The translations under genes were made by a program, and so were the position numbers. A stretch of 64,000 bases of DNA. Source: a virus. The notes beneath the pieces were generated by a model. The model was not told the origin of the DNA. It did not search any database and was given only the letters and a program-made list of their open reading frames with translations. The DNA is taken from the IMG/VR virus record IMGVR_UViG_3300034190_002630; one strand, given 5' to 3'. Position 1 is the stretch's first letter. The number at the start of each line of letters is the position of its first letter. This document shows positions 6,040-63,004 of this stretch, piece by piece.

Positions 6040-6255
6040 ATGATGAAATTTAAAGTTACATGGAAACGTGGATACGGTGATTCAGACGGAAAGTCTGAGA
6101 TCGTTAATTTTGACGAATTATTAGATTGGAATTTAGACGCATATTTGGGTGACGAATGGATCGATGAGTTCAAAGAAATGACTGTCGGTGGTGACATCAA
6201 ATATGTTTACGGCCCATGCGGTGAAGAAGAAGTACATTATGAAAGGATCGCTTAA
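6040..6255 (+). CDS. Hypothetical early protein
   Basis: ORF directly after the promoter; coupled to the next ORF. Confidence 0.6.
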   Translation: MMKFKVTWKRGYGDSDGKSEIVNFDELLDWNLDAYLGDEWIDEFKEMTVGGDIKYVYGPCGEEEVHYERIA

Positions 6256-6548
6256 TGAAAAAACCTAACTTATCAAAACTAGAATACTGGTTAAAATTAA
6301 AAGATCAAATGAGAGGTATGAGTGTCAAAGATTTGGATATCATTATTCAAATGGCGACAGAACAAAAACGAAATCTAGGAAAGATGTCGTCTTTCAAATA
6401 TTCTCTCGGTGATCAAGTAATGTTTGGCAGACCAAATGGTCGTCAACGACTTGGTAAGATCGTGAAACTTAACCCTGCGAAAGCACTGATTGAAGAAGTC
6501 GGTGGTTCGAAATGGAGAGTTCCTTACTCTCTAATTAAGGCGGCGTAA
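6255..6548 (+). CDS. Hypothetical protein with SH3/KOW-like C-terminus
   Basis: YSLGDQVMF..GKIVKLNP.KA.I..WRVPYSLI. Confidence 0.65.
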   Translation: MKKPNLSKLEYWLKLKDQMRGMSVKDLDIIIQMATEQKRNLGKMSSFKYSLGDQVMFGRPNGRQRLGKIVKLNPAKALIEEVGGSKWRVPYSLIKAA

Positions 6549-6712
6549 TGATCGTTAAAAAACAAAAATCAAGAGATGCAAAAAGGTACGTGTTAACATC
6601 ACGTGCCAGAAATAAACAATTAGGTCTTATTAAAAAGTCATCTAAAAAATCAATGCGACAGTATAATAAACAGATGACAGATATAAGATACATGGATTCA
6701 CACTATGCCTAA
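6548..6712 (+). CDS. Small basic hypothetical protein (54 aa)
   Basis: TAATG coupling; fills the gap between flanking ORFs. Confidence 0.45.
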   Translation: MIVKKQKSRDAKRYVLTSRARNKQLGLIKKSSKKSMRQYNKQMTDIRYMDSHYA

Positions 6713-6956
6713 AGATGAATTAGAACAGTTTAAAGTAGAACCTATTACATTTACTAGGGTCACTTTAGAAGTTGAAAAAATACGTATTGATGATATACTA
6801 GATCAATATCGTAGAAAAATGCAAGATAGACCTCTTAAAGAAAATGAAAATCTAAACATGAATAGGTTTGAGGGATATATGCAAGGGTTATATTTTATGG
6901 AAAAAGTTATCATGGAGGCGCTGAATGAGCAATCAAAGACCCGGCAAATTCACTAA
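6705..6956 (+). CDS. Hypothetical protein
   Basis: Part of the tightly packed ORF chain. Confidence 0.55.
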   Translation: MPKDELEQFKVEPITFTRVTLEVEKIRIDDILDQYRRKMQDRPLKENENLNMNRFEGYMQGLYFMEKVIMEALNEQSKTRQIH

Positions 6957-7140
6957 AGGATTAGATTCAGGTATGAACGAAATGAACCTGAAGAAATCGT
7001 TGTATCTTGCCGCTACACTATTAGAAAATGCTGACAAAGAAGACGAGGCATTTTATTTTCATCAACTTGTCGAATGGATTCAAGACGGAAACAAACTACC
7101 GTTAGAACCCAAAGAAATGGAGAGAGCACTTGGCATCTAA
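6925..7140 (+). CDS. Hypothetical protein
   Basis: GGAGG RBS; packed chain. Confidence 0.65.
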   Translation: MSNQRPGKFTKGLDSGMNEMNLKKSLYLAATLLENADKEDEAFYFHQLVEWIQDGNKLPLEPKEMERALGI

Positions 7141-8101
7141 AATCGATAATAGATTACCTATTCTTAGTGATGCAGTAAGACCACCTGAAGTAGAGGGTGT
7201 TGATTTTATTGAGTTTGCTTGGATTAAAGTAAGTGAATTAAAAGAAAAATATTTTGATAAAAAATTTAATCCTAGAGTAACTGATGTTGATCATAATAAA
7301 ATAACTGAGTTTTCAAAACTTATCAAAAATAATACTTACAGACATTTTAGTTTTTTTCCACCAGTCATTTGTCTGACAGTAAATAAATTAGTTAGTGGTT
7401 ATCATAAATTTATGGCTCATCGAGCACAGTCATTAGAATATATTTTTGTTGCGTTTGTAAAAACAAACGGATCAGAAGTAAACGCAAAAAACTATGGCGT
7501 TATTTGTAATGCACCACAAAATGAATATGTCAATAATCCTAGAGATCAAAGAGACATCATTCAATTAGTTATTGAAAATTTAGAAGAACAAGGATATAAT
7601 GATGATCACGCCCCACAAGATACAACTATTCAAAAAGTATATAATACTTTAAGAGTTCAAAAATCTGAAATATCTTTTGCAAAATTATTGAGAGAAATCA
7701 AAAAGAATTTCAATAAATTACAAACGCTTAAAACATATTCACCAGATGAATTAAAAGAATATGTTCATGAGAAGTATGGTGATCAAGAATCTAATAAAGG
7801 TCCTTTGGCCGATGTTTCATTCAAAAATTATGATAAGGATTCTGATAGACCATGGAAAGATGATAGAGTATGGTATATAGAATCAATGTGTCATCGTGAT
7901 GATCAAAAAAATCCAGCACTACGAACCGCAAGATATATGGCATTTACTGAAACTATAGATTTAGAAAAAGCCCGAATGAATAAAAAAAAGTCTATTGAAC
8001 AAATAAAGAGAGATATTTTGAGAGCAGCTGAGATAATAAAACACAAGGATTTTGTAGACCCAGAACTTATTTTTGTTAATCAAAGTTATGATGCTGACTA
8101 A
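7130..8101 (+). CDS. Hypothetical protein with ParB/Srx-like N-terminal domain
   Basis: NPR..D..KI, PPVI and LVSGYHKFMA (ParB-like GxHR box); TTG start. Confidence 0.55.
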   Translation: MASKIDNRLPILSDAVRPPEVEGVDFIEFAWIKVSELKEKYFDKKFNPRVTDVDHNKITEFSKLIKNNTYRHFSFFPPVICLTVNKLVSGYHKFMAHRAQSLEYIFVAFVKTNGSEVNAKNYGVICNAPQNEYVNNPRDQRDIIQLVIENLEEQGYNDDHAPQDTTIQKVYNTLRVQKSEISFAKLLREIKKNFNKLQTLKTYSPDELKEYVHEKYGDQESNKGPLADVSFKNYDKDSDRPWKDDRVWYIESMCHRDDQKNPALRTARYMAFTETIDLEKARMNKKKSIEQIKRDILRAAEIIKHKDFVDPELIFVNQSYDAD

Positions 8102-8594
8102 AGATCAAAGCGATAATTGTTATACTTGTTTTCATAAGATGAGATCATCATTATGGATGTGGAATAAACCAGAATTTAAACAAAGAAACCTCTGGCGAAT
8201 ATTTTATACTGACATATCAACAATTACAAGTGGTATTATATCTTTAAAGGCATCAGAAAAAAATTATGCATATGAAAATGATCGATTGGTTGATGAACAC
8301 TGGTCAACACCAGAAAAAATTGGTAAATTTATTTTTGATAATGCATCAGAATATCTTGAGGATTATGATAAATTTAAACAATTATATATGACATGTTCAA
8401 TGACAATCAAGACTTTAAAATCAGAAAACATCACTTTATCAAAACAAAAAGGAGTGCGAGTATTAGAAAAATATAAAAATGCTAGTATTAATCTTATTCA
8501 TCCAAAACTTGGCGTATTAATGCTTGATGACGGTGATGAATTTCCGTTTACATTACCAGAAAAATTCTTACAACAGGAAGGAAAATATGACTAA
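8073..8594 (+). CDS. Hypothetical protein
   Basis: 173-aa ORF; start may be the ATG near 8088-8091. Confidence 0.6.
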   Translation: MLIKVMMLTKDQSDNCYTCFHKMRSSLWMWNKPEFKQRNLWRIFYTDISTITSGIISLKASEKNYAYENDRLVDEHWSTPEKIGKFIFDNASEYLEDYDKFKQLYMTCSMTIKTLKSENITLSKQKGVRVLEKYKNASINLIHPKLGVLMLDDGDEFPFTLPEKFLQQEGKYD

Positions 8595-8778
8595 AAAAAC
8601 ATACACATATCACAATAATTCTAGGGTTGCCAGATACTTTGCAGAAAAACGTGGTGGAAAGTATATCGGTTTTATGGGTGATCTAGAATTACAATTAGAG
8701 ATTATAAAAGATAATAACAGAGATAAAGATATACGAACATCTAAAAAGGGTGCATATGTAGTTGAGTATGACAAGTGA
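8587..8778 (+). CDS. Hypothetical protein
   Basis: GGAAGG RBS before ATG 8587. Confidence 0.55.
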   Translation: MTKKTYTYHNNSRVARYFAEKRGGKYIGFMGDLELQLEIIKDNNRDKDIRTSKKGAYVVEYDK

Positions 8779-8968
8779 TATTATTGAAAGTATTATTGAT
8801 GTAGGAAGTGGTTTTCTACTTGCGATTGTCATACAATTACTCATATTTCCGTTGTTCGATCTATATCCAAGTATATTAGACAGTATGGGCATTGCTTTGA
8901 TATTTACTGTGGTATCCATGACAAGATCAGCGTTATGGCGTAGATATTTTAGAAAACGAAGAGTATGA
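8762..8968 (+). CDS. Small two-TM membrane protein of a common phage family
   Basis: ESIIDVGSGFLLA..IFPLF..IFTVVS..R..WRRYF. Confidence 0.7.
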   Translation: MSMTSDIIESIIDVGSGFLLAIVIQLLIFPLFDLYPSILDSMGIALIFTVVSMTRSALWRRYFRKRRV

Positions 8969-9087
8969 CAGATGAACAAATAAAAGAGTTATTAGAGATG
9001 TTTCCAAACATACCAAACCCAGACGAACAACCTCTGGTGTTTGACTATTATATACGTGTTTATAAATTTTTGAAAGGGGTAAAATGA
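8965..9087 (+). CDS. Hypothetical 40-aa protein
   Basis: MTDEQIKELLEMFPNIPNPDEQPLVFDYYIRVYKFLKGVK; ATGA coupling. Confidence 0.5.
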   Translation: MTDEQIKELLEMFPNIPNPDEQPLVFDYYIRVYKFLKGVK

Positions 9088-9252
9088 ATGCGAGTTTTTC
9101 TAATTTCAGTGGTTATTTTTATAGTCCTAGTTCTAGGAATACTATATACTCAACCACAAAGATGGTTCTATCACAGTCACGAATGCGATGGTGGAATAGG
9201 TGGTGGATGCAACTTATCAACAGGCAAAGGAAATTTTTTAACGAGGTGGTAA
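9088..9252 (+). CDS. 54-aa signal-anchored peptide with a CDGGIGGGC loop
   Basis: Hydrophobic N-terminus; GAAAGGGG RBS. Confidence 0.55.
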   Translation: MRVFLISVVIFIVLVLGILYTQPQRWFYHSHECDGGIGGGCNLSTGKGNFLTRW

Positions 9253-9253
9253 T

Positions 9254-9565
9254 ATGAGACAATTTACTTACGATACATGGAACAGTATTATGGATGCCAA
9301 TTGGAATCCATTACGACACATAAAAGACATGCAAGTACGACATTTGGTACTACAATTATTGGCATGGATGTGGTGTATCACATTTTCACTATATTTCGGA
9401 TCATTTGTAATATTCGGATATAGTGCTGCGGCACACTTTATTATTATTCTAGCAGTAGTAGTGACAGTCGCTACATTTAAAACAGCAGAAAATTTTAAAA
9501 CGCATGACGGAACACTGAAATACGAGGAGGCACAGGCTCCAAGTAAATACGAGGATATTTGGTAG
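9254..9565 (+). CDS. Membrane protein resembling marine proteobacterial/phage homologues
   Basis: GAGGTG RBS; WNSIMD..NPLRHI.D.QVRH.VLQ.LAWMWC. Confidence 0.75.
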   Translation: MRQFTYDTWNSIMDANWNPLRHIKDMQVRHLVLQLLAWMWCITFSLYFGSFVIFGYSAAAHFIIILAVVVTVATFKTAENFKTHDGTLKYEEAQAPSKYEDIW

Positions 9566-9566
9566 A

Positions 9567-9761
9567 ATGACGCAACCACATAAAGACATGTATCACAATC
9601 CGAATCTGAATGTAAAAGATTGGTGGAAAAGAATACCTGATAGTATTGAGTACGGAACAACAAGTTACGAAACAAAATACAGTTATCAGATATGTCCAAG
9701 TTGTGAGACAGATTTAGTCGATAACAAATGCGTTGTATGTGAACAAACAGAGGATGAGTAA
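9567..9761 (+). CDS. Small Zn-ribbon protein
   Basis: CPSC...CVVC. Confidence 0.55.
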   Translation: MTQPHKDMYHNPNLNVKDWWKRIPDSIEYGTTSYETKYSYQICPSCETDLVDNKCVVCEQTEDE

Positions 9762-9920
9762 ATGAAACGATATGGTAATAAAATCAAACTATCGGAAGAA
9801 TTATATCCTTTCCGACACATTATAGAAAAATGTATGGAAAAAGGTATAACAAAGTTTCCGTTGGTGCGATACAATAAAAAGATAATAAAAAAACAACCTG
9901 CAACCATCATATTAAACTAA
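9762..9920 (+). CDS. Hypothetical 52-aa protein
   Basis: Fills the gap exactly between neighbouring ORFs. Confidence 0.4.
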   Translation: MKRYGNKIKLSEELYPFRHIIEKCMEKGITKFPLVRYNKKIIKKQPATIILN

Positions 9921-10001
9921 ATGGACGAGGAAGAGTGGTATGATGAATGCCCTCTTTGTGGTGAGGATATAGAGGAATGTGAATGTTTTGACTATGACTA
10001 A
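9921..10001 (+). CDS. 26-aa acidic Cys-rich peptide
   Basis: MDEEEWYDECPLCGEDIEECECFDYD; abuts the upstream stop and overlaps the downstream start. Confidence 0.4.
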   Translation: MDEEEWYDECPLCGEDIEECECFDYD

Positions 10002-10593: not shown

Positions 10594-10656
10594 AACCCCC
10601 AACCCTCATACAATAGAACAACAACTCACAGTAAGCTCGCTCGCTAGGGGCTTGAT

Positions 10657-11056: not shown

Positions 11057-11134
11057 AGTCTGCGGCCTATCGGCAAAAAATTTCTGAGTTTCCACAAAAA
11101 TTATCGAAAAATCCCATCGGGGCCCGAAAAGGCC

Positions 11135-11974: not shown

Positions 11975-12040
11975 ATGATTGAATATGCGATGATACTCTT
12001 TGCAATTCTACTGAATGAAACTTTGATCAGTATATTTTAG
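11975..12040 (+). CDS. 21-aa hydrophobic micropeptide
   Basis: GGAG RBS; MIEYAMILFAILLNETLISIF. Confidence 0.45.
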   Translation: MIEYAMILFAILLNETLISIF

Positions 12041-12115
12041 GGGGTATAGCTCAGTTGGGAGAGCACTTGATTTGCATTCAAGGGGTCGTGGGTTCGAATC
12101 CCTCTACCTCCACCA
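12040..12115 (+). tRNA. tRNA-Ala(TGC)
   Basis: GGGGGTA/TACCTCC acceptor with G3:U70, anticodon loop TTTGCAT, TTCGAAT, encoded CCA. Confidence 0.95.
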
Positions 12116-15312: not shown

Positions 15313-15756
15313 ATGGCACACGTTTCAGGTAATTTTGGCACAGACGCACAATTAACAAACAAAAGTAGTAAGTCTGCAAGAATAAACACTGATTTAGATT
15401 TATTTTTCACAAGAAGAACAAATAAAGATGTTAGCGTTGTAGAAGATATTCAGGCTGTCAAAAGATCAATTCGTAATTTAGTACAATTTAATCCTCATGA
15501 GAAACCATTTCACCCAGAGATCTCATCAGGTATTCGTGATTTATTATTTGAAAATATGTCACCTGTCACCAGTGTTGTACTTGCAAGGAAAGTAGAAGAC
15601 GTAATTACAAACTTTGAACCTCGTGCTAGACTACAATCTGTAAGAGCGATACCAAGATTTGATGACAACGCATATGAGGTCACTGTTGATTTTTACGTTA
15701 GAAACTATCCTACAGAATTAGTAAACTTAGACCTCTTTCTAGAGAGATTACGATAA
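15313..15756 (+). CDS. gp25: Baseplate wedge subunit
   Basis: DLDL.F, AVKRSIRNLV..EKPF.P, I.NFEPR. Confidence 0.93.
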   Translation: MAHVSGNFGTDAQLTNKSSKSARINTDLDLFFTRRTNKDVSVVEDIQAVKRSIRNLVQFNPHEKPFHPEISSGIRDLLFENMSPVTSVVLARKVEDVITNFEPRARLQSVRAIPRFDDNAYEVTVDFYVRNYPTELVNLDLFLERLR

Positions 15757-17684
15757 TGGCAACGACTGTAAATAAAAAAAATTTAAGAGTAACTGAACTT
15801 GACTTTGATGAAATAAAAGATAATCTAAAAACTTTTTTAAAAGATCAAGATGTATTAAAAGATTACGACTTCGATGGTTCTGCGATGAACATATTGTTAG
15901 ACACACTTGCATACAACACTCACTACCTTGGTTACAATGCAAACATGGCTGCAAATGAAATGTTCTTAGACACAGCAGGTTTACGTTCATCTGTGGTATC
16001 ACACGCAAAAACTTTAGGTTATGAAGTTCAATCTGCTCGAGCACCAAAAGCACAAATCAGCGTGACAGTGGTTTCTGATCAAACATCTATCACAATGCCA
16101 GCAGGTACAAAATTTTCAACAACATATGATGGCACAGATTACAATTTTGTAACATCAAATGATATACAAAGATTTAAGTTTGGTAATTCTGTTAACTTTG
16201 ATTCAATAGATGTTTTTGAAGGTACATACATTACAACAAGATATACAGTTGATACATCAGACTTAGAACAAAGATTTTTATTAAGAGACAATCGTGCCGA
16301 TACATCCACACTAAGAGTCACAGTTCAGAACTCATCTACAGATACAACTTCAACAACTTATACAAAGGCAACTGATATCACACAATTAGAATCTACATCT
16401 ACAGTTTATTATTTACAAGAAACTGAGGGAGGTCAATTTGAAGTTTACTTTGGAGATGACGTGGTTTCAAAAGCAGTGGCAGATGGTAACATTGTATTTT
16501 TAACATATGTTGTTACAAACAAAACTGAAGCAAACGGTGCATCATTATTTAATCCACCAAGTTCGATTGGTGACGAAACAAATATTTCTGTAACCACAGT
16601 ATCAAATGCAATCGGTGGTGCAGAACCTGAGACATTACGATCAATAAAATTAAATGCACCTTTGAATTATGCATCACAAGGTAGAGCTGTAACAACATCT
16701 GATTATGAGTCAGTAGTCAAAAGAGTTTTTGCAAACACACAAGCAGTTTCAGTTTTTGGTGGAGAGGACGGAAGTTTTAATTCATCAACTGGTGTGACAT
16801 CAACACCTGAATATGGAAAAGTTTTTATATCAATTAAATCTACAACTGGTGCAAACTTAACATCATCACAAAAAACACAATTGGTAAGTGATTTAAAAAC
16901 TTATACGATTGCATCTATAACACCTGTGATTGTTGACCCAGAAACAACATTTTTAAGACTTGCAATTACATATAGTTATGACACGTCTGCAACAACTTTA
17001 GGATCAAGTGATATTGATGGTTTGATCACCACTGCATTACAATCATACAACTCAAATACATTACAAACATTTAATTCACAATACAGAGCATCTGCTGTTT
17101 CAAAACTTATCGATGAAGCAGATAACTCTATTTTAAATAGTACAACATCTGTTAAACTTTCAAAGTTCTTCACACCAACACAAGGAACAACAACTTCATA
17201 TAGAATACCTTTTAACAATGCGTTATTACACCCAGAGGATGGTTATCTAGCATCGACTGGTGGTGTTGTTTCATCAACTGGTTTTAGAGTAGGAACAGAT
17301 ACGACATCAGAGTTTTTCTTTGATGATGATGGCCAAGGTAATTTAAGAAGATACTCAATCGTTGGAACTACAAGAAACTATGCAGACTCAAGCGCAGGCA
17401 CAATAGATTATGATTCTGGTTTGGTAACAATTAATAATATTAATATCACTGGTGTTCTTAATGTAGATGATTTAACATCATCACAAATAAGAATTATAGT
17501 GACACCTAATTCAAATGATATCGTGCCAGTGAGAAATCAAATATTAGAAATTGATTTTGTTAATACAAGTTTAAATGGTAACATCGATACAGCCACAACA
17601 TCAGGCACAACTACAACAACCACTGGCTCTGGAACAACTGCCACAACTACTGTGACATCATCAGGTGGCACGTCAAGTTATTAA
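15756..17684 (+). CDS. gp6: Baseplate wedge subunit
   Basis: ELDFDxIK.NLK.FL, LLD.LAYNTHY, ANEMFLD.A..RSSVVSHAK.LGY, QGRAVT..DY. Confidence 0.95.
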   Translation: MATTVNKKNLRVTELDFDEIKDNLKTFLKDQDVLKDYDFDGSAMNILLDTLAYNTHYLGYNANMAANEMFLDTAGLRSSVVSHAKTLGYEVQSARAPKAQISVTVVSDQTSITMPAGTKFSTTYDGTDYNFVTSNDIQRFKFGNSVNFDSIDVFEGTYITTRYTVDTSDLEQRFLLRDNRADTSTLRVTVQNSSTDTTSTTYTKATDITQLESTSTVYYLQETEGGQFEVYFGDDVVSKAVADGNIVFLTYVVTNKTEANGASLFNPPSSIGDETNISVTTVSNAIGGAEPETLRSIKLNAPLNYASQGRAVTTSDYESVVKRVFANTQAVSVFGGEDGSFNSSTGVTSTPEYGKVFISIKSTTGANLTSSQKTQLVSDLKTYTIASITPVIVDPETTFLRLAITYSYDTSATTLGSSDIDGLITTALQSYNSNTLQTFNSQYRASAVSKLIDEADNSILNSTTSVKLSKFFTPTQGTTTSYRIPFNNALLHPEDGYLASTGGVVSSTGFRVGTDTTSEFFFDDDGQGNLRRYSIVGTTRNYADSSAGTIDYDSGLVTINNINITGVLNVDDLTSSQIRIIVTPNSNDIVPVRNQILEIDFVNTSLNGNIDTATTSGTTTTTTGSGTTATTTVTSSGGTSSY

Positions 17685-24087: not shown

Positions 24088-27000
24088 ATGGTACAAAAAA
24101 CAGATTTAAATGTTGCGCCATATTATGACGACTTCAGCGAAGATAAAAATTTTCATCGTATTTTATTCAGACCTGGTTTTGCAGTACAAGCACGAGAACT
24201 AACACAATTACAATCTATACTACAAAATCAGATTGAACGATTTGGTAATCACATGTTCCAAGAAGGAACTGCTGTTATACCTGGTAATCAAAATATTAAT
24301 CCTAATTATTATTCTATTAGACTTGCATCAACTTTTGCAGGTGAAACAATTGATGTGTCAAAATATTATAATGCATCATCGCCTATAGAGATACAAGGTG
24401 CGACAAGTGGAGTAAGAGCAAAAGTCATAGGATTTAAAGCTGCAACTGCAACAACTCAACCTTTACTTTATGTGCATTATGTATCATCAGGTTCTGATTT
24501 AGAAACAACAGTTTTTCAAGATGGCGAAAATATATTTGCTGATGCAGCCATAACTCATACGACTGCATATTCTATCAATGCTAATTCAGCAACTACATTT
24601 ACACCAACAGACGATACAACTGCATCTCAAATAGGAACTGCTGTCACTGCAGGCGGTGGAGTATATTATATTCGTGGAACTTTTGTTCAAATGACTGAAC
24701 AAACAGTCGTTTTATCTGATAATAGTCAAACTGCAACAGGAAGAGTAGGATTTACAGTATCAGAGGAGTTGATATCACCTGAAACAGATGAATCTTTGAC
24801 AGATAATGCAACAGGTGCTTCAAACTTTGCAGCCAAAGGTGCTCATCGATTAAAGATAAGTTTAAATTTAACATCTATTGATTTGAACTCTACTGCTGAT
24901 GAAAATTTTGTAGAAATACTTAGAGTCAATGAGGGTTCAAATGAATTAGAAGCAAGACCTACAGAATATTCTGTAATAGGTGATACACTTGCTAGAAGAA
25001 CATTTGACGAATCAGGTGATTATACTGTTAGACCTTTTCAGATTGATGCTAGAGAAGGTGTCACATCTACAGTCAAAGGTGAAGAGTTTAGAGGTGTCTA
25101 TGCTAATTTAGAAGATCAAACACAAGACGGAAACGCCGCATCTGAAGATAAGTTTGTTGTTGCAGTGTCACCAGGTAAAGCATATGTTCGTGGATATGAA
25201 ATAGAAAAAACTGCAATAACATTTAAGGATGTTAACAAAGCAAGAGACTTTGATACAGTAAATACAGGTACACTTAATACAGAGTTAGGTAACTTTGTAA
25301 AAATTACGAACTTATATAATCAACCACAAGTTTCAGATATAAGTGGTGAGACAACACCATACAAACAAATTCAACTACATGATGATGTAATTAATACAAG
25401 AGGAACAGCGAGAGGAAGACACATAGGAGTTGCAAGAGCAAGAACTATTGAGTTTGACTCTGGTACTGCTGGAAACACAGATGCAGTTTACAAATTATTT
25501 TTATTTGATATTCGTCTATTTACATATTTAACATTATCAGGTGAACCATCAGCAACATTAACATCTAATCATTCAAATGGTGGAATACAAGTAAAAGGTG
25601 TTACCTCTGGTGCGACAGGTTTTGTTTTCGGAAGTTTGACATCAGGTCAAACAGTTGTTCTCACAAATGTTTCTGGTACATTTACATCAGGTGAAAAAAT
25701 TACTGCGTCTGATAGTAGCGAATCAGATCAAATCGTTGAAGACTCAGCAAATGCAGATTTGACAATATCTGAAGTAGTGACTCATGAGATTTCTCAAGCA
25801 AGATCATTATTTCAAGATGATGATGATGCAGGTCAAGACTTTACTGCTGATCTAGTTCTAACAGGTAATGTAGTCGGATCATTAATCGCAGACGGAACAG
25901 ATGCAGGTGGAACAAATGAAAATGCAAACTTTGTATCTGAACAAGATGGCACATCTACTATTGCTTTAGAAACTAGACAAGTTGCCGCACTTACAAACCC
26001 AGAAAAAAATGTTGCATTATATAAACTTTCAAAATCAGCTGTAAAAACTTTATTAACAACTGCGAATGAGGCAGCATCCGATACATCATTTACAATAAGA
26101 AAACAATTTATTGGCACAACAAATTCATCTGGTGCCGTATCATTTACTGCAGGTGCAAATGAAACATTCTTATCTCACACTGAAAAAGACTTTACTCTAA
26201 ACGTATTAACAGCAGGCAGTGGTAGTTCTGTTCAAGGTGATATAGTTTCAGTTAGTGGTAATATCGCTGGAACAGGAACATCAACTATAACAATTACAGA
26301 TAATTCAAGTTTTGGTAACGCTGCAAAAGTTATGTTAACTGCAACATTATTAAAAACAAATATTACACAAAGAATAAAAACTACAAATTTATCTAAACAA
26401 GTAAAAGTTGCAGGTGCAACCGCAGGTGCGTTTGGAACAAAAGCAACTGACACTACAATATCTTTAGGAAGAGCAGATGTATTTAATCTTGGTGCTGTCT
26501 TTGATTCTGAAGATACAAGTAGTGATGCATCTTTACCAACACTTACATTATCAAGTGTAGTTGGTACATTTATCAGAGGTGAAAAGATTACAGGTGGTAC
26601 ATCAGGTGCAACTGCACATGTTGTAAATCCAACAACACCTATATCATATTATTTAATTAATGGTGCAGGTGCAACTGACTTTTCTGCAAGTGAAACAATT
26701 ACTGGTGCATCATCAGGTGCGACTGCAACTGTGTCATCACTAACTGCTGGATCAAAAGTCATTACATCTAATTATACATTAGATACAGGTCAAAGAGATA
26801 ACTTTTATGACATCGCAAGAATACAATTAAAACCTGAGACTGCAAAACCAAGAGGAAGATTATTAGTTGTATTTGATTTCTTTGAACATTCTAGTGGTTT
26901 ATTTTTTAGTGTTGATTCTTATACAGATGTTGCAGGTCGTATGGGATACGATGACATTCCAACTTACACAGCAACGAGAGTTGACCCAGATGAACCAGAA

Positions 27001-36678: not shown

Positions 36679-36733
36679 TTGTTATCCATGTGTGATATAA
36701 ATATACTTATAACATATTGAGAGATTATTGTCA

Positions 36734-37528
36734 ATGAAAATATTAGTCACTGGTGACAAAGGATTTATTGGAAGTCATTTGTCTAAATCACTTATTAATG
36801 ATGGTCATGAAGTTATCGGTTGGGATAAAAAAGATGATAAAGATATACTTCATATAACATCTGATGATATTGGTTATGCAGAGAGGATAGTGCATCTTGC
36901 GGCAAAGGCAAATGTAAAACAAAGTTTAAAATATCCAACAAGTTATCATATAACAAATACTCTAGGAACTAGAGCAGTTTTTGAAGCAGCAGAGTATGTT
37001 GGTGTGCCCGTAATTTTCGCATCATCATCTACTGCAAAACAATGGTGGTTATCACCATACGGAACGACTAAAAAAATGACAGAGGTTATCTCAGATAACT
37101 ATTTACAAAATGTGGCATTGAGATTCTCAAATGTTTATGGTGATGGTCAAAGAGACACGATGTTGTTTCAAAGAATGATTGATAATAAATTAGAATATAT
37201 TAGTAACAATCATATCAGAGACTTTGTACATGTCGATGATGTCGTGGATGCAATAAAAATATTTTTATATGCAAAAGATTTTGAATTTGATAGAATATAT
37301 GACGTAGGATCAGGTGAAGGTCTTATTGTAAATAATTTAGTAGAATATTATGGATTTAATGTTGAAGAAAGAGTTGGTGAGTCTTGTGAAATGTTAGATA
37401 ATACGTCTGATATTACGAAATTGACTAGATTAGGGTGGTCACCAAAAAATGATATACATAAATACTTAAAAAGGAAATTAGATGGCAGAACCAAACTCAA
37501 AAACAACGCTCAAGGATTATTGTCTTAG
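36734..37528 (+). CDS. NAD-dependent epimerase/dehydratase
   Basis: ILVTGxxGFIG, HLAA, ASSS, YxxxK, LRF.NVYG, RDFVHV.D. Confidence 0.9.
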   Translation: MKILVTGDKGFIGSHLSKSLINDGHEVIGWDKKDDKDILHITSDDIGYAERIVHLAAKANVKQSLKYPTSYHITNTLGTRAVFEAAEYVGVPVIFASSSTAKQWWLSPYGTTKKMTEVISDNYLQNVALRFSNVYGDGQRDTMLFQRMIDNKLEYISNNHIRDFVHVDDVVDAIKIFLYAKDFEFDRIYDVGSGEGLIVNNLVEYYGFNVEERVGESCEMLDNTSDITKLTRLGWSPKNDIHKYLKRKLDGRTKLKNNAQGLLS

Positions 37529-44362: not shown

Positions 44363-46384
44363 ATGCCTAGTACATTCGGCGTTTCACCTGGCGTTCAGGT
44401 AAGAGAAGTAGATTTAACGAATGTAGTACCTGCAGTTGCAACATCTATTGGTGCAATCGCTGGACCATTCGAAAAAGGCCCTGTTTCTAGTGTCACAACA
44501 ATTAGTTCCGAAGAGGAGTTAGTAGAGATTTTTGGTAAACCAAATGCTGAAAATTTTGAAGTTTTCTTTACTGCGGCAAACTTCTTAGGATATACAAATG
44601 CCCTAAAAGTTGTTAGAACGGAATCTGGTGTTTTAAACGCTGGTGCGAACAGTGGAATATTAATCAGAGATACAGACCATTATTTAAACTCATTTGCAGA
44701 CGGTTCAGGTTCACATGGTGAGTGGACTGCAAGAACTGCTGGAACATGGGGTAATTCACTTGGTGTTTCATTATGTCCAAGTGCAACTGCATACGAACAA
44801 ATGATTAGTTCATCAAGTCAAACAGTTGGTGAAGATGCTGCAGGTTCAACATCTATCGCTGTTGACGATATAGATTTAGCAAATAATGTTATCGCAGTTG
44901 GTGACATTGTATCATTCTTCCAAGATTCAGCAGGTGCGACACCTGTGACTGGTGAGACTGGTAAACAATATGAAGTTACTGCTGTTGATACAAGTGCCAA
45001 CACAATGACAATCAAAAGATTAGATGATCCAAACGGTGGTGGAACATTTAATATCATACCTGATAATTCATTTATTAAAAGACGTTGGAGATTTTACGAT
45101 TTATTCAATGGTGCTCCAGGCACATCATCATACGCAACAAACAATCAAAGAGGTACAAATGACGAACTTCATTTTGTTGTTTATGACAGAACTGGTGCAA
45201 CAACAGGGTTTTCTGTAGATTCAAACGGACAGAGAACAAACTCAGTTATTGAGACATTCTCAAACTTATCAAAACACCCTAATGCAAAAAATGAATCTGG
45301 TTCATCAATCTATTACCCAGATTATGTTTACGCAAACTCAGAGTTCATTTATTGGACTGATCATATTTCTGCAGGCACAAATTGGGGAACTAATTTAACA
45401 GGAACAACAGCATTTACAGACGTTATTGTTGTTGTTGTAGATGAACTAACTGGTGGAACAGATGATTATGCTGTGACTGCTGGTGAAACAAAAACTGCAT
45501 ATGAAAAGTTTGAAGATGATGCAACTGAAGATGTAAACTTAATTCTTGGTGGTGAGTCATCAATCGTAGCAGATACACAGTCTGCATATGATACACATGC
45601 AACAATGATTAATGATATCGTAACAGCAAGAAAAGATTGTTTAGGTTTTGTATCACCTCGTAGAGGTGCTGTTGTAGGAGTCACAGACTCAGCAACACAA
45701 ACCAAAAACGTATCTGATGATGCTGCAACTGTTCCAAGTTCATCATTTTTAGTTCTTGACAGTGGATACAAATACATGTACGACAAATACAACGATACAT
45801 TTAGATTTGTACCTTTAAACGGCGATGTTGCTGGAACATGTGCTAGAACTGATGCAGTAGCAGATTCATTCTTCTCACCTGCTGGATATAATAGAGGTAG
45901 AATTAGAAATGCAATCAAACTTGCTTACAACCCAAATCAAACACAAAGAGATGAGTTGTACAGAGGAAGAGTCAACCCAGTTATCAATCAACCAGGTCAA
46001 GGTGTTGTCCTATTTGGTGATAAAACAGCATTGACAAATCCTTCAGCATTTGATAGAATAAACGTTAGAAGATTGTTTATCTTATTAGAAAAAGCAATCT
46101 CAACAGCTGCTAAATTCCAACTCTTTGAGTTCAATGATGAATTTACAAGAGCACAATTTAGAAGTTTGATAGAACCTTTCCTAAGAGACGTACAAGGTAG
46201 AAGAGGTATCACAGACTTTAGAGTTATAGCAGATGCAACAAATAACACAGGTGAAGTTATTGATAGAAACGAATTTGTCGCAGACATCTTTGTAAAACCA
46301 AATAGATCAATCAACTTTATCCAACTAAACTTCGTTGCGACACGAACAGGTGTAGCGTTCACTGAAGTAGCAGGAGCAGTATAA
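44363..46384 (+). CDS. gp18: Tail sheath protein
   Basis: SPGV.VRE.DLT, SPAG.NRG, FDRINVRRLF, FE.ND..TR. Confidence 0.97.
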   Translation: MPSTFGVSPGVQVREVDLTNVVPAVATSIGAIAGPFEKGPVSSVTTISSEEELVEIFGKPNAENFEVFFTAANFLGYTNALKVVRTESGVLNAGANSGILIRDTDHYLNSFADGSGSHGEWTARTAGTWGNSLGVSLCPSATAYEQMISSSSQTVGEDAAGSTSIAVDDIDLANNVIAVGDIVSFFQDSAGATPVTGETGKQYEVTAVDTSANTMTIKRLDDPNGGGTFNIIPDNSFIKRRWRFYDLFNGAPGTSSYATNNQRGTNDELHFVVYDRTGATTGFSVDSNGQRTNSVIETFSNLSKHPNAKNESGSSIYYPDYVYANSEFIYWTDHISAGTNWGTNLTGTTAFTDVIVVVVDELTGGTDDYAVTAGETKTAYEKFEDDATEDVNLILGGESSIVADTQSAYDTHATMINDIVTARKDCLGFVSPRRGAVVGVTDSATQTKNVSDDAATVPSSSFLVLDSGYKYMYDKYNDTFRFVPLNGDVAGTCARTDAVADSFFSPAGYNRGRIRNAIKLAYNPNQTQRDELYRGRVNPVINQPGQGVVLFGDKTALTNPSAFDRINVRRLFILLEKAISTAAKFQLFEFNDEFTRAQFRSLIEPFLRDVQGRRGITDFRVIADATNNTGEVIDRNEFVADIFVKPNRSINFIQLNFVATRTGVAFTEVAGAV

Positions 46385-48950: not shown

Positions 48951-49334
48951 ATGGCACTAGTAGTACAAACACTAAGAGATTCAGACTTTGAAACAGTAAT
49001 CAAGGTTACAACAACATCAACAAATTCAGCTGCGAGTATCCTAGATGCTTCTGCATTGGCAGGTGCATCAACTGATCCTAGACTATCGATAGTATCATGT
49101 AGTTGGTCTGTCGCTTCGACAACTGATATTTTATTTGATGCAACATCTAATGTCGTTGCATTATCACTAAATGGTAGTGGTCATTTTAATACACAAGCAG
49201 TAGGATTACCTGCAATAGCAAACAATGCTGGTAGTGGTATTAGTGGTGACGTATTGTTAACAAACGGATCTGCATCAGTAGGATTCGTAATATTAAAATT
49301 TAGAAAGACTTCGGGGTTTGATAACTTAAGCTAA
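48951..49334 (+). CDS. Hypothetical head-associated protein
   Basis: Between the core genes and gp21; NNAG.G..GD.L motif. Confidence 0.65.
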   Translation: MALVVQTLRDSDFETVIKVTTTSTNSAASILDASALAGASTDPRLSIVSCSWSVASTTDILFDATSNVVALSLNGSGHFNTQAVGLPAIANNAGSGISGDVLLTNGSASVGFVILKFRKTSGFDNLS

Positions 49335-49996
49335 TGAATACAGTAAAACTTATAACAGAGGCGAATGATTTTAGTACATCAAACTATATTATTGAACAAA
49401 AAGAAGACGGCAAAAAAGATTACAAAATAAAAGGTATCTTTATGCAATCTAACATAAAGAATAGAAACGGAAGAGTATATCCGAGAGAAGTTCTTATGAA
49501 AGAGGTAAAGAACTATGATTCTAAGTTCATACAAAAAAATAGAGCATTTGGTGAACTTGGACACCCAGATGGTCCAACTGTAAATTTAGACAGAGTATCA
49601 CATATGATTACAAGTCTAAAACCAGAGGGTGATAATTTTATAGGAGAAGCGAAGATAATGTCAACACCTATGGGTGAGATTGTAAAATCACTCATGGATG
49701 AAGGTGCGACATTAGGAGTTTCATCAAGAGGTATGGGGAGTTTAGACCAAAGAGGTGGTGTAAACTATGTGAAAAATGATTTTAAACTTGCAACCGCAGG
49801 TGATATCGTGGCAGATCCATCGGCACCTTCCGCCTTCGTAGAGGGAATAATGGAAGGTAAGGAATGGGTTTGGGATCACGGATCATTGGTTGAAGCACAA
49901 GTTTATGAAATGAAAGAAAGAATTGAAAAAAGAGTTAGAGCAAGACAAAACAAGGAACAAGCATTAGAGTTTGCGAAGTTTCTTAAAATGCTTTAA
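49334..49996 (+). CDS. gp21: Prohead protease
   Basis: GIFMQ...NRNGR.Y, GELGHP, LGVSSRG.GS, D.VADPSAP.AFV. Confidence 0.97.
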   Translation: MNTVKLITEANDFSTSNYIIEQKEDGKKDYKIKGIFMQSNIKNRNGRVYPREVLMKEVKNYDSKFIQKNRAFGELGHPDGPTVNLDRVSHMITSLKPEGDNFIGEAKIMSTPMGEIVKSLMDEGATLGVSSRGMGSLDQRGGVNYVKNDFKLATAGDIVADPSAPSAFVEGIMEGKEWVWDHGSLVEAQVYEMKERIEKRVRARQNKEQALEFAKFLKML

Positions 49997-53479: not shown

Positions 53480-53908
53480 ATGACCTTAGATGAATTAAAA
53501 CAAATCGTTTACAAACAATTACCCGTAGATAAAGATCACTTAGATACAGAGTCTTTGAGAAACCAAGAACTATATGCAAAGTTCATAGATTATAAAACTA
53601 ACTTTGATTTTTTACTTGCAAAAGCAAAAGGTGAATACAAAGTTTTATATAAAGAAAAATGGGAATATTATGGTGGAAAAGCAGACGCAAAAATATATGT
53701 CACAAAACCATTTGATCTCAAAGTTTTGAAAAATGATTTACATATCTACATAGAATCTGATAAAGAAATAATTGATGCAGAAAATAAAATAGTTTATTTA
53801 GAAACTACTGTAAAATACATTGATTATGTTCTGAAATCAATTCAGTCTAGAGGGTGGGATATAAAAAATGCAATTGAGTGGAAAAAGTTTGAAGCCGGAA
53901 TGGTTTAG
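53480..53908 (+). CDS. uvsY: Recombination mediator
   Basis: WEYY.GKA, PF.LKV.K, R.W.IKNAIEW.KF; TTGACT-17-TAGGAT promoter at 53444-53472. Confidence 0.92.
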   Translation: MTLDELKQIVYKQLPVDKDHLDTESLRNQELYAKFIDYKTNFDFLLAKAKGEYKVLYKEKWEYYGGKADAKIYVTKPFDLKVLKNDLHIYIESDKEIIDAENKIVYLETTVKYIDYVLKSIQSRGWDIKNAIEWKKFEAGMV

Positions 53909-54383
53909 TAAAGTTCAACAAATGAGAAACGAGGAAGTTGACTTCCTCTATGAAATGGTTGAACAAACTGAAGGTGACATACTTGAGATAGGTATGGGTG
54001 GTTCTACTTTTGCATTTTTAGATGCCACAAAGGATACAGATAGACAAGTTTGGTCAATCGATATGAAAAATAAACTTGAAAAATATTATGATTATATTCC
54101 ACAAGACTATCAAGAGAGATTAAATTTTATTCAAGCAGATTCACATCAAACAGTATTGCGAAAAGAGTTTGGATTATTATTGATTGATGGTGATCATCAT
54201 TTTGATGCAGTTAGAAAAGATACAATGTCATTTTGGTCAAACGTAAATGATGACGGACTAATTTTGTATCATGATTATGATTTAAAAGAAGTAAATCAAT
54301 TTGTTGATTCATGGATATATGATTTCGAATATGCCTTAGTTCATAAAATACAAAACAATCTCATCGCACTAAAAAAAGTATGA
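53868..54383 (+). CDS. Class I SAM-dependent methyltransferase (Methyltransf_24-like)
   Basis: ILEIG..GST, SID, LIDGDH, G.I.YHD; true start may be 53922. Confidence 0.8.
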   Translation: MQLSGKSLKPEWFSKVQQMRNEEVDFLYEMVEQTEGDILEIGMGGSTFAFLDATKDTDRQVWSIDMKNKLEKYYDYIPQDYQERLNFIQADSHQTVLRKEFGLLLIDGDHHFDAVRKDTMSFWSNVNDDGLILYHDYDLKEVNQFVDSWIYDFEYALVHKIQNNLIALKKV

Positions 54384-59626: not shown

Positions 59627-59739
59627 TACATAAAAAAATTAAAAAAATAAAATTATATATTTTATTGTATTGGAATACATTCTTAAAAAGATTTAAGAAA
59701 AAAGAAAAACATGACACTTTCATCTACGAAGATAAATGA
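59623..59739 (+). CDS. 38-aa basic peptide
   Basis: ATGA coupling; MIHKKIKKIKLYILLYWNTFLKRFKKKEKHDTFIYEDK. Confidence 0.45.
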   Translation: MIHKKIKKIKLYILLYWNTFLKRFKKKEKHDTFIYEDK

Positions 59740-60442
59740 GGTTTCAATTGGTATTACAAACTTTTGTAATGCAGGTTGTCCTCAATGTCATCGCACTAAT
59801 CCTAATGGGTTGAATACAGTTGATTGGTTGCCACTAACGTCTTGGTCACTTGATGACTTCAAAAGAGCATTTCCAACATTTAAAAATATTAATATTATTG
59901 AGTTCTGTGGTATTTGGGGCGATCCAATCATGGCAAAAGATATATTTGAAATCTGTAAATATATAATAGACAATTCAGATTGTAAAATAGAAATACTAAC
60001 AAACGGTTCTATACGAGATGAAACTTGGTGGTGGAATCTTGGAGTTATGTGTGGAAACAGACTTGAGGTTATTTTTGATATTGATGGCATAACACAAGAG
60101 ATGCATCAACAATATAGAAGAAAAACTAACCTGCAAAAGATACTTAACAATATGGAAACATTAACATCAACGTTTGCAAAAGCAAAAACATTTACAGTTG
60201 TTTTCAAACATAATGAAGATTACATTGAAGAAATAGAAAAACAAAATAAATCTCATGGTGCATTTTTTTGTGAGTTTGTTCATTCAAATAGAATATTTGA
60301 TGAGGAAGATAAGTTTCATTATGTGGATGAAAATGGCGAAAAACAATTTTTAGAAAAATCTTACAAAAAACTTCCTGTAACAACTTGGAGTTGCAGTTGT
60401 GATATTTGTAGACCAAAGAAAGATTTCAATGATAGAGTGTGA
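59711..60442 (+). CDS. Radical SAM core domain
   Basis: CNAGCPQC, FCG.WGDP, TNGS, FDIDG. Confidence 0.88.
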   Translation: MTLSSTKINEVSIGITNFCNAGCPQCHRTNPNGLNTVDWLPLTSWSLDDFKRAFPTFKNINIIEFCGIWGDPIMAKDIFEICKYIIDNSDCKIEILTNGSIRDETWWWNLGVMCGNRLEVIFDIDGITQEMHQQYRRKTNLQKILNNMETLTSTFAKAKTFTVVFKHNEDYIEEIEKQNKSHGAFFCEFVHSNRIFDEEDKFHYVDENGEKQFLEKSYKKLPVTTWSCSCDICRPKKDFNDRV

Positions 60443-60761
60443 GTGGAAAAAAGAAGGTAGAGTTCAAATAAACCCAGATGGTCAAGTTTATCCATGTTGT
60501 TATCTTTGTACTCCACATTATAGATTTCTTTTAGGTTTCAAGTCAAATTTAACACATAAAGAGCATAAAGATGAACATACTCAACACATTTGGGATGAGT
60601 ATAACGATAATAAAGAAAAATTTAATATTAATAATAGATCATTAGAAGAAATACTAAACGATAAATGGTTCACAGAAACATTACCTAAATCATGGGAGAG
60701 TGAAGATACTGCGTTAGTTCAATGTATTGAACACTGCACAGTAGATAAAAAGGATGAATAG
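60429..60761 (+). CDS. Stand-alone SPASM/twitch-like Fe-S domain
   Basis: C.W....QINPDGQVYPCCY...QCIEHC. Confidence 0.75.
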   Translation: MIECEWKKEGRVQINPDGQVYPCCYLCTPHYRFLLGFKSNLTHKEHKDEHTQHIWDEYNDNKEKFNINNRSLEEILNDKWFTETLPKSWESEDTALVQCIEHCTVDKKDE

Positions 60762-61695
60762 TAATTTATGTAAAGCACCTCATACAAATATGTATTGTTC
60801 AGTGGAAGGTTTTGTTTCGCCTTGTTGGTTGACTATTGGTAATTGTGATCAATGGTCTGAAACTAGATCACTTAAAGATATTTGGTTTGGGGAACATTTT
60901 GATAAGTATAGAAACAAATGTTGTAGTTTACATAAAGACTTCACTATTGCAGATGCGTATAAAGACAATGTAGTGAAAAAATATCCTAGTATGATAGAAC
61001 TTGAATTATCAAATCAATGTAACTTTGAATGTATTATGTGTAATGAAAGATTGTCTTCTGGTATTAGAAAAAATAAAGGTCTTGCACCAATGCCTATGGC
61101 ATATACAAATAAATTTGTCGATGAGGTAGAAGAGTTGTTACCACATTTAGATGAGATTAGATTTAATGGAGGTGAACCTTTTGCTCAGAAAATAGTTTTT
61201 GATATTATAGATCGTGTCACTGATGATACTAAAATTAATATTGCAACTAACGGAAGCATATTAAACAAAAGAGTAAAAGATTATATTAAAAAGAAAAATA
61301 TAAGATTAAATATTAGTATTGATGCTTTAACAAAAGATTTATATGATCAAATTAGAGTGAATGGTGACTTTAATAATGTTATGGAAAATTTTCAGATATT
61401 TAAACAATATTGCGATATTGCAGTTATGGTAAATCCAATGACAAATAATTGGTTTCAGATGAAAGATTTTGTTGACTTCTGTAATGAAAATAATGTATAT
61501 TTAGGATACAACACTGTAAGATATCCAAAACATCTTTCAATACAACATATGCCTGTTGATATGATTGAGGATGTATATCTTACTTTACATAAACAAGTTA
61601 ATACATATCCAAATAAAAATCATAATTGGAAAAGATTTGAGTATTTGGTTGAAACACAAATAAAAAATTGGATGTTGGAAAAATGGAATGGTTAA
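60754..61695 (+). CDS. Radical SAM protein with N-terminal twitch-like domain
   Basis: CKAP..G.V.PC; CNFECIMC; GGEP, TNG, SID. Confidence 0.88.
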   Translation: MNSNLCKAPHTNMYCSVEGFVSPCWLTIGNCDQWSETRSLKDIWFGEHFDKYRNKCCSLHKDFTIADAYKDNVVKKYPSMIELELSNQCNFECIMCNERLSSGIRKNKGLAPMPMAYTNKFVDEVEELLPHLDEIRFNGGEPFAQKIVFDIIDRVTDDTKINIATNGSILNKRVKDYIKKKNIRLNISIDALTKDLYDQIRVNGDFNNVMENFQIFKQYCDIAVMVNPMTNNWFQMKDFVDFCNENNVYLGYNTVRYPKHLSIQHMPVDMIEDVYLTLHKQVNTYPNKNHNWKRFEYLVETQIKNWMLEKWNG

Positions 61696-63004
61696 TTTAG
61701 GAATATCAGAAGGATTTCATGATGCAGGCGTAACTGTATTAGACGGACAAGAAATTAAATACGCATCTCATAGTGAAAGATATAGTAGAAAGAAAGGTGA
61801 TAAATGGATTCATCCAAAACAAATGAAAATAGGTTATCACAATATCGCATATTACGAAAAACCATTTTGGAAAAACACTAGAAGATTTTATGCAAATCAA
61901 TCACTCCAATGGCCAAGAAGAAAATATGACTACTATTTTAAACATCATCAATCACATGCTGCGGCAGGATATTTTACTGCACCATTTCATAATTGCAATA
62001 TTATTGTTGTAGATGCTATTGGTGAATGGGATACTGTTTCGATATGGGATAATATGAAAAAAATTAAGTCATTTAAATATCCATATTCATTAGGATTATT
62101 ATATTCAGCAATTACGCATAGACTTGGTTTGAAACCAAACGAGGATGAATATATCACAATGGGAATGGCTGCATATGGTGAACCTAAATATGATTTAGAA
62201 TATCTTTTGCAAAAGAACAATCATTGGGGTGTAGGAAATTTGTTACCGAATGCACGTGATGAAGATTTGGCCGCATCGATTCAAAATCTTTATGAATCAA
62301 AACTTTTAGAACTGTTGAAATATACGACAAAAAATAATTTGATATTAATGGGTGGATGTGCTTTAAATTGTGTTGCAAACAGTAAGATACCAGATCGATA
62401 TAATATATGGATAATGCCATCACCAGGTGATGCAGGTTCTTCTCTTGGTGCGGCTGCATTGATTAATAAAGTAAGATTAAATTGGAAACATCCATATCTC
62501 GGCCATAACATTGATAGAACTATAAATCCAAAAGAAGTTGTTAGACATTTATTAGAACACAAATATTGTGGGATTGCAAATGGACGTGCTGAGTTTGGAC
62601 CAAGAGCATTAGGAAATCGTTCACTAATTGCTGATCCTAGATATCCTATAAAAGACACAATAAATCAAATTAAAAGACGACAAAAATATCGTCCTTTTGC
62701 ACCCATGATATTAGAAGAACACTTTGACAAATATTTCAAAGGAAGAAAGAATAGATATATGCAATTTGTATCAAAAGCACTACATGATTATAAGTCTGTT
62801 ACGCATGTTGATGGCACTGCCCGTGTACAAGTCGTAGAAAGATCAAATCCGTCTGTAGCCCGCCTTATATTGGAAGAATGGTATGAAAAAACAGGGTGTC
62901 CTATGTTATTGAATACATCCTTGAATATAAAAGGTCAACCTATAGTTAATACATGGGATGATGCAATAGATTTTCAGAAAGAATATAATGTCAAAGTCTT
63001 CTAA
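61688..63004 (+). CDS. Carbamoyltransferase (NodU/CmcH/TobZ family)
   Basis: HDA, ERYSR.K, HH.SHA, D..GE, GG.ALN..AN, EFGPRALG.RS, RPFAP, H.DGT.R.Q, LNTS.N. Confidence 0.95.
   Translation: MVNLGISEGFHDAGVTVLDGQEIKYASHSERYSRKKGDKWIHPKQMKIGYHNIAYYEKPFWKNTRRFYANQSLQWPRRKYDYYFKHHQSHAAAGYFTAPFHNCNIIVVDAIGEWDTVSIWDNMKKIKSFKYPYSLGLLYSAITHRLGLKPNEDEYITMGMAAYGEPKYDLEYLLQKNNHWGVGNLLPNARDEDLAASIQNLYESKLLELLKYTTKNNLILMGGCALNCVANSKIPDRYNIWIMPSPGDAGSSLGAAALINKVRLNWKHPYLGHNIDRTINPKEVVRHLLEHKYCGIANGRAEFGPRALGNRSLIADPRYPIKDTINQIKRRQKYRPFAPMILEEHFDKYFKGRKNRYMQFVSKALHDYKSVTHVDGTARVQVVERSNPSVARLILEEWYEKTGCPMLLNTSLNIKGQPIVNTWDDAIDFQKEYNVKVF

Follow-up and report, generated by a model that had tools for sequence, protein, structure and literature searches.

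Near-complete purge of several exact asymmetric hexamers from a marine T4-like phage, probably as escape from host restriction-type defense

We analyzed a 64,000-nt window of the uncultured marine T4-like phage IMGVR_UViG_3300034190_002630 and found the asymmetric hexamer GATGGA almost completely purged from it, together with at least four related words. All window counts refer to these 64 kb. Taken together, GATGGA, ACTGGA, TCTGGA, CCTGGA and TCAGGA occur at 3 sites, against ~122 expected from shuffling of synonymous codons. A preliminary description of the window had singled out GATGGA as the avoided word; the purge is as described, but the word is one of at least five equally purged, and the other four had been missed. 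The depletion acts at the level of the DNA, requires the exact hexamers, is bypassed in genes by synonymous codons, and forms a mosaic among related phages in which the words are separable from each other. The loss is probably an escape from sequence-specific, restriction-type defense enzymes of the host acting on GATGGA, HCTGGA (that is, ACTGGA, TCTGGA and CCTGGA) and TCAGGA.

Exact counting gave no GATGGA on the + strand and a single TCCATC, at 49816–49821, as had been seen by manual scan. This sole surviving copy, reading TCCATC on the + strand, lies in frame xxT-CCA-TCx inside the open reading frame (ORF) 49334–49996, and none of the contigs of relatives that we compared covers position 49816. 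A maximal-order Markov null, conditioned on both 5-mers, predicted 24.2 sites on the two strands for the one observed (z = -6.3), making GATGGA/TCCATC the most depleted of all hexamers under this model. The null is well calibrated, since the observed/expected ratio is ~1 in 45 more distant T4-like loci and also in eight AT-rich marine bacterial genomes (seven Pelagibacterales and one Prochlorococcus). Shuffling of synonymous codons within the called genes (64 ORFs scored by codon usage and covering 59 kb) raised the expectation to 36.1 ± 5.0 sites, with 23 as the lowest value among 1000 shuffles (Poisson P ~8e-15), and related phages that keep the word predicted 58 sites on both strands. The ratio that the preliminary description had proposed to compute is thus far from 1 under both the Markov and the codon-preserving null.

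Within genes, the word is replaced by synonymous choice of GAC-GGA, GAT-GGC or GAT-GGT. Aspartate is mostly encoded by GAT (1187 GAT and 295 GAC codons, 80% GAT), and the comparison words GATGGT (49), GATGGC (21), AATGGA (42), TATGGA (36) and CATGGA (27) are all common on the + strand, in agreement with the earlier impression. GACGGA occurs 26 times on this strand and all 26 copies are in frame as GAC-GGA, encoding Asp-Gly, while GAT-GGA pairs number zero; 5.7 GAC-GGA pairs were expected from codon usage, and the chance of 26/26 GAC at a 20% baseline is ~6e-19. The copies start at 6085, 7084, 9506, 14454, 15138, 16767, 19251, 20298, 21539, 21572, 21788, 23220, 25126, 25891 (previously placed at 25890), 27886, 28210, 29596, 31153, 33067, 34288, 40455, 41759, 48216, 54252, 55133 and 61742. 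The reverse complement TCCGTC is found on the + strand at the three positions noted before, 12569, 13698 and 62848, each time in frame xxT-CCG-TCx; these 3 copies are no excess over the 1.9 expected under the codon-shuffle null.

A pattern of this kind might also arise from a translational codon-pair bias, or from a context-dependent mutational bias, at GAT-GGA and similar pairs. Most of the expected copies are in frame (23.6 of the 36 in the shuffle), GAC-GGA is over-used, and it is rather frequent also in the Pelagibacter phages HTVC008M and Mosig. The loss nevertheless extends to copies that such a bias would not reach: out-of-frame sense copies of GATGGA number 0 against 6.1 expected in the window and antisense copies 1 against 6.5 (codon shuffle). 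In a 210-kb pool of the window's clade, we counted 4 GATGGA on the coding strand for 158 expected and 2 TCCATC for 33.5, and the other purged words showed the same loss in two orientations. Confinement to in-frame copies of the sense strand, the mark of codon-pair bias, is contradicted also by TCCAGA (0 vs. 13.0) and TCCTGA (0 vs. 7.2) on the sense strand. Other NAT-GGA pairs are ordinary, and AAT-GGA, TAT-GGA, CAT-GGA, TTT-GGA and AGT-GGA are all at their usual usage; relatives of the same composition and AT-rich bacteria have ratios near 1, and close relatives switch state. As both strands and all three frames are hit, we conclude that selection acts on DNA and not on codon pairs; the codon-pair or mutational account is highly improbable and for practical purposes refuted by the strand and frame tests.

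The purge of GATGGA needs the full exact hexamer, including its first and last base. A 5-mer as the cause is ruled out by the abundance of GATGG (70) and ATGGA (105) on the + strand of the window, so that both refuting causes named in the preliminary description, a shorter word and codon-pair bias, failed against the data. The clade pool contained 6 GATGGA for 191 expected, in comparison with 83 for 58 of GATGGC, 38 for 52 of GATGGG and 295 for 296 of GATGGT; AATGGA, CATGGA and TATGGA were at ordinary frequency in it, and the bases flanking GATGGA had no effect. The single-base neighbors tested were ordinary except for GAAGGA, which is separately depleted, and for GACGGA and GATGGC, which are enriched as replacement words. 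We considered GATGGR (R, A or G) as the true word, as GATGGG is absent from the + strand of the window, yet the relatives keep GATGGG and the word is therefore GATGGA. Similarly, we rejected as the avoided words the 5-bp sites of BccI (CCATC), BsrI (ACTGG) and HpyAV (CCTTC), and that of a CCAGA enzyme: these 5-mers followed by another base occur at near-normal counts.

We then compared the word with its state in ~160 related loci obtained in three scans of viral contigs. The distribution of GATGGA among them, which the preliminary description had suggested testing, was bimodal and patchy, with avoidance in the clade of the window. In 88 related loci (keepers) the observed/expected ratio was near 1, while 20 independent loci (avoiders), not counting near-identical copies of the window, had a ratio of at most 0.25. 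The nearest relative by capsid protein (L011; 86% identity) keeps the word, with 15 sites for 11.7 expected. The closest cultured phages by protein, at ~50% identity, are Methylophilales phage Melnitz (45 vs. 43.5), HTVC008M (14 vs. 18.5) and Mosig (14 vs. 16.5), all close to expectation; a near-identity DNA search of known phages gave no match to the window.

A tree built from the gp6-like baseplate protein places the window in a 19-member clade in which 18 of the 19 loci lack GATGGA, and a second clade, of 17 members, mixes avoiders and keepers. Across this tree we inferred at least 6 state changes for GATGGA, 8 for GAAGGA and only ~3 for HCTGGA. The one exception in the window's clade (L100), nested among avoiders, keeps GATGGA at 9 sites, with 13 expected, and at these sites its kin read GACGGA, GATGGT or GATGGC, all synonymous for Asp-Gly; its DNA identity to the nearest sister is 88%. 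The sites left over in avoiders are each confined to one lineage; in L099, for example, a GATGGA stands where three relatives have GACGGA. A mutation-selection balance predicts this pattern. The avoidance is thus lineage-specific and neither a general trait of T4-like phages nor an effect of base composition.

A comparison of all k-mers between avoiders, picked by GATGGA alone, and keepers revealed the further words. On both strands of the window, ACTGGA occurs 0 times (23.7 expected from the codon shuffle), TCTGGA once (24.5), CCTGGA once (9.3) and TCAGGA 0 times (28.5), and both orientations are gone. The sole surviving TCTGGA is at 17628–17633 on the + strand, within the gp6-like baseplate wedge gene (15756–17684), and the sole CCTGGA at 45115–45120 on the - strand (TCCAGG on the +), within the tail sheath gene (44363–46384). 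GCTGGA is spared, its in-frame copies being enriched (18 vs. 5.5). As with GATGGA, the first and last base are both needed for each of these words: in the clade pool, the observed and expected counts were 0 and 158 for ACTGGA but 165 and 237 for ACTGGT, and 3 and 70 for TCAGGA but 217 and 69 for TCAGGT. Also here the replacement is synonymous, from xCT-GGA or xCA-GGA to xCA-GGT, which for ACTGGA/TCAGGA is a two-base codon-pair change. Avoiders and window are ~2.5- to 3-fold enriched for CACCTG/CAGGTG, and the strong enrichment of CAGGT/ACCTG is due to the xCA-GGT rewriting.

The words are lost and kept separately in different lineages. L100 lacks HCTGGA and TCAGGA and has GATGGA; Melnitz (90000–139999) has GATGGA and HCTGGA and lacks TCAGGA (1 vs. 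17) and CCAGGA (0 vs. 9), an apparent avoidance of YCAGGA in a cultured phage with a known host. In several clades only TCAGGA or CCAGGA is missing, GAAGGA is absent as well from many relatives, and one relative (L005) lacks all NCAGGA. All avoided words, those of the relatives included, have the form NNNGGA. We nevertheless rejected one degenerate word or weight matrix for all of them, as the effects of the bases are nonadditive (GCTGGA and AATGGA are kept, ACTGGA and GATGGA lost) and because the words also separate between lineages. In a single locus (L160), HCTGGA was depleted on the coding strand (3 vs. 17) and not in the opposite orientation (8 vs. 11); the numbers are small, and the pattern may be strand-asymmetric and Type III-like.

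As the main replacement is precisely a T-to-C change, we considered systematic T-to-C (A-to-G) miscalls of long reads at a methylated word, whether in sequencing or assembly. Such miscalls would create GACGGA also out of frame, where ~6 to 7 copies were expected and 0 seen, and TCCGTC, with ~8 expected and 3 seen; the lack of an excess of TCCGTC argues against a systematic A-to-G miscall. The GACGGA sites of the window recur in near-identical contigs assembled independently from other metagenomes (L002-L004, L091, L093): each covered site is reproduced in at least one of these, most in all, and nine also in the more distant L005, while three sites read AACGGA or GATAGA in some near-identical contigs. 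Relatives use GATGGT or GATGGC at the same sites, and the replacement of ACTGGA and TCAGGA takes changes at two bases of the codon pair. We rejected the artefact on the out-of-frame counts and the independent assemblies, and consider it scarcely credible.

The words are thus rarer than predicted by composition- and codon-aware nulls, the effect is double-stranded and it is specific to lineages, all features of restriction avoidance. The earlier proposal of selection against a nonpalindromic hexamer is borne out on both strands, in all frames, by the synonymous replacements and by the lineage specificity. Exactness of the words, two-strand loss, synonymous rewriting, fast turnover among lineages and loss of palindromes are together the signature of selection by sequence-specific cleavage, and a host agent of restriction type accounts for them most economically and is our best explanation. 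Under the proposed mechanism, sequence-specific DNA-targeting defense enzymes of the marine host population would exert strong purifying selection on the phage lineage, directed at a small number of exact, asymmetric 6-bp words in its double-stranded DNA. The enzymes would be of restriction-modification type and satisfied by a single site or a pair in any orientation, as for example an orthodox Type IIS enzyme. Phage genomes bearing a site would be cut or blocked, such that new sites are removed on arising, and genes would keep their protein sequence by bypassing the words with synonymous codons. We infer the host origin of the agent, its nature as a restriction enzyme and its class from these patterns.

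The palindromes show a related picture. CGCG is absent from the window, where the Markov model predicts 44.8 both-strand occurrences (~22 sites), and 50-kb stretches of HTVC008M, Mosig and Melnitz each contain 0–1 copies; in sampled SAR11 genomes CGCG is at or only modestly below expectation. Its avoidance looks phage-specific and common to the whole group, including SAR11 phages. Other palindromes are scarce in the window as well (CCGG 3 sites, GAATTC 1, ACTAGT 1, AGTACT 1), and the scarcity of CGCG, CCGG and GAATTC is what is usually seen in virulent phages under restriction pressure. Among other words of the window, AGCTA/TAGCT occurs 7 times for 42 expected from relatives, and TATTTA/TAAATA is the second most under-represented hexamer (89 vs. 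136.6, Markov), possibly because words resembling T4-type late promoters are avoided within genes. Separately, ACATGT is 3- to 4-fold enriched in avoiders (188 vs. 53; 40 vs. 14 in the window).

The strand symmetry and the lineage mosaic would suit avoidance of methylation equally well. Host methyltransferases, orphan or not, would then mark the words, and marked phage DNA would be penalized, for example by modification-dependent (Type IV) nucleases of the next host or by interference with the expression of phage genes. In marine bacterial genomes, methylated words are scarcer than expected even when only orphan methyltransferases are present (PMC8919816), most marine methyltransferases have no partner nuclease (PMC9516812), and methylation of GATGGA is documented (PMC9296519). 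The methylation-linked depletion is, however, ~2- to 3-fold (PMC8919816), while the loss seen here is near total (observed/expected ~0.03), as is typical where cleavage is lethal. These phages have no known link to a Type IV system or a methyltransferase, and we regard the explanation as unlikely.

The cause could also lie in the phage itself, with its own site-specific nucleases, or a sequence-preferring DNA modification, demanding that its genome be kept free of targets. T4-like phages degrade the DNA of their hosts (T4 EndoII and EndoIV), and phage-encoded nucleases would fit this habit. GATGGA is ordinary in candidate hosts, at ~0.6 per kb in SAR11, and would offer such a nuclease many targets; the avoided set also tracks the phage clades fairly well, with only ~3 state changes for HCTGGA. 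Against this, none of ~40 window proteins scanned is a recognizable nuclease or DNA methyltransferase of such a kind, and the switching of four or five independent specificities, given the number of GATGGA and GAAGGA changes, would need repeated gain and loss of phage nucleases. We know of no phage that guards against its own nuclease by site avoidance alone, and hold an origin within the phage to be quite unlikely.

Several observations weigh against host restriction-type enzymes as the cause. No cognate enzyme, methylome or host was found for the avoided words, and the evidence spans only 64 kb of the genome. We found no depletion of GATGGA in any of 401 Pelagibacterales species genomes (the negative holds without the two unpublished ones, G115 and G320), and none of the five words was depleted in stretches sampled from seven of them and from one Prochlorococcus single-cell genome. 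The negative carries little weight, as a methylated host has no need to avoid its own sites. SAR11 genomes have been reported to be without restriction-modification systems (PMC9516812), and in a large survey phages showed no avoidance of Type I or Type IIG sites and only rare avoidance of Type III sites (PMC6286503). In light of that survey, it is atypical for several related asymmetric words to vanish almost entirely, unless orthodox Type IIS enzymes are responsible. Linking to hosts through phage contigs in bacterial assemblies was unusable: the search returned only distant capsid relatives (at most 74% identity), binned in genomes of many unrelated phyla, and the contigs look like binning artefacts. 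The T4-like contigs L171-L241 were placed in metagenome-assembled genomes of many unrelated phyla, among them archaea, Saccharibacteria and Chloroflexota; these are evident artefacts and call for caution in bin-based host assignment.

The shared form of the words allows a more specific but tentative reading, to which we give rather little weight. The NNNGGA (TCCNNN) family of GATGGA, HCTGGA, TCAGGA/CCAGGA and GAAGGA could be the footprint of a diversifying family of defense enzymes in an abundant AT-rich marine bacterium, possibly a SAR11-like lineage thought to be without restriction-modification. The enzymes would be single-polypeptide or otherwise easily retargeted, combining a constant part that reads GGA with a variable part, and they would need to exert strong and stable pressure for phage genomes to be purged. 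This runs counter to what is generally found, namely that specificities which are easy to retarget are not avoided by phages.

The window as a whole (1–64000) is a structural and replication module of a T4-like myovirus. Its GC content is 33%, and the + strand carries nearly all genes. Profile matches identified a T4-type baseplate, tail sheath, portal, scaffold, terminase, a UvsW-like helicase and gp46/47-like proteins. Accessory genes, likewise recognized by profile matches, lie between the structural genes at 3119–3793, 4598–5290, 36728–37528, 53868–54383 and 59711–63004; they comprise an AAA_33/zeta-toxin-like kinase, a UDP-glucose dehydrogenase-like protein, an NAD-dependent epimerase, a class I methyltransferase (Methyltransf_24), two radical SAM/SPASM proteins and a carbamoyltransferase. 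Judged by these sequence matches, the enzymes may serve in sugar or DNA modification. The window also carries genes for tRNA-Thr(UGU) at 5292–5366 and tRNA-Ala(UGC) at 12040–12115. These decode ACA and GCA, used 1001 and 740 times in the window, and the rewriting of xCT-GGA to xCA-GGT raises the frequency of the xCA class of codons.

If host enzymes are the agent, the near-complete purge of four or five exact words would be a quantitative readout of the defense recognition present in a host population, and this among dominant AT-rich marine bacteria that are widely thought to be poor in defense systems. The predicted list of specificities is GATGGA, ACTGGA/TCTGGA/CCTGGA and TCAGGA, with GAAGGA added in relatives. 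Methylation at this combination would make a genome a strong candidate for the host, and the set could serve as a host-linking signature for a large group of uncultured myoviruses; the use as a marker, raised already in the preliminary description, is a prediction. The mosaic among close relatives would provide a natural time series for the rate at which avoidance is gained and lost.

The orientation of the lost sites bears on the class of the enzyme. The codon shuffle places ~30 of the expected GATGGA sites on the coding strand, where 0 were observed, and ~6 on the opposite strand, where 1 was. Classical Type III cleavage needs two inversely oriented sites and the loss of one orientation suffices for evasion (PMC6286503). 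Removal of the ~6 minority sites would thus have been enough, yet both orientations are gone, which disfavors a classical Type III enzyme and favors systems needing one site or any pair. The known sites of BREX (PglX) carry the methylated adenine at position 5 of a nonpalindromic 6-bp word, and those of the MmeI family of Type IIL enzymes are asymmetric, 6–8 bp long, with a penultimate adenine. The avoided words resemble both in being nonpalindromic and 6 bp long, and an easy change of specificity would fit a lineage-varying NNNGGA family. They differ in that neither of these adenines is present: the fifth base of GATGGA is G and that of TCCATC is T, contrary to the BREX type 1 rule, and the next-to-last base is either G or T on both strands of GATGGA, and likewise of HCTGGA and TCAGGA, contrary to the MmeI-family rule; GAAGGA even reads TCCTTC on its complement, a word devoid of adenine. 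Of the original suggestion of a Type IIG/IIS/III or BREX-like site, a restriction-type agent therefore stands as the most economical, while Type III and BREX fit poorly. In phage T7, the EcoP15I (CAGCAG) sites are reportedly strand-biased as an evasion of Type III restriction, a finding ascribed to Meisel et al. in 1992 and taken up in PMC6286503. There, too, an asymmetric restriction word shapes a phage genome, but T7 keeps its sites, all in one orientation, while the phage studied here has lost both, beyond what evasion of Type III needs. The form of an orthodox Type IIS site fits the data, with a contiguous exact hexamer, independence of the flanks and removal in both orientations, a match that is consistent but not diagnostic. 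Phages avoid essentially only orthodox Type II sites (PMC6286503), a pattern that points to Type IIS-like enzymes or else marks the case as unusual.

The relevant match of a full-text literature search for the avoided words and methylation terms was methylation of GATGGA (motif m32) in a marine Rhodobacteraceae genome (Wilbanks et al. 2022, PMC9296519), from which it follows that an enzyme of this specificity exists. The bearer differs in its high GC content and is an unlikely host for a phage of 33% GC, and a nuclease partner or phage link is not described in the text consulted. Marine pelagiphages split along their phylogeny by depletion of GANTC, for which the responsible host defense is unidentified (Seong et al. 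2022, PMC9516812). The two cases agree in involving marine phages of AT-rich heterotrophs with word-bearing and word-free groups following phylogeny; they differ in that GANTC is a palindromic, CcrM-type word depleted in podoviruses, whereas we found asymmetric hexamers depleted in T4-like myoviruses, and GANTC is not depleted in the window (165 sites). Avoidance of restriction sites in the genomes of virulent phages was reportedly described by Sharp in 1986. The features of known restriction-site avoidance in phages (Rusinov et al. 2018, PMC6286503) recur here, with short exact words nearly eliminated on both strands through synonymous changes in a lineage-specific manner and palindromes lost; the differences are that the words are asymmetric hexamers, that at least four related words are purged together and that the purge forms a mosaic across relatives. 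The phenomenon is ordinary restriction-site avoidance, unusual in that the sites are asymmetric, several, interrelated and almost completely removed.

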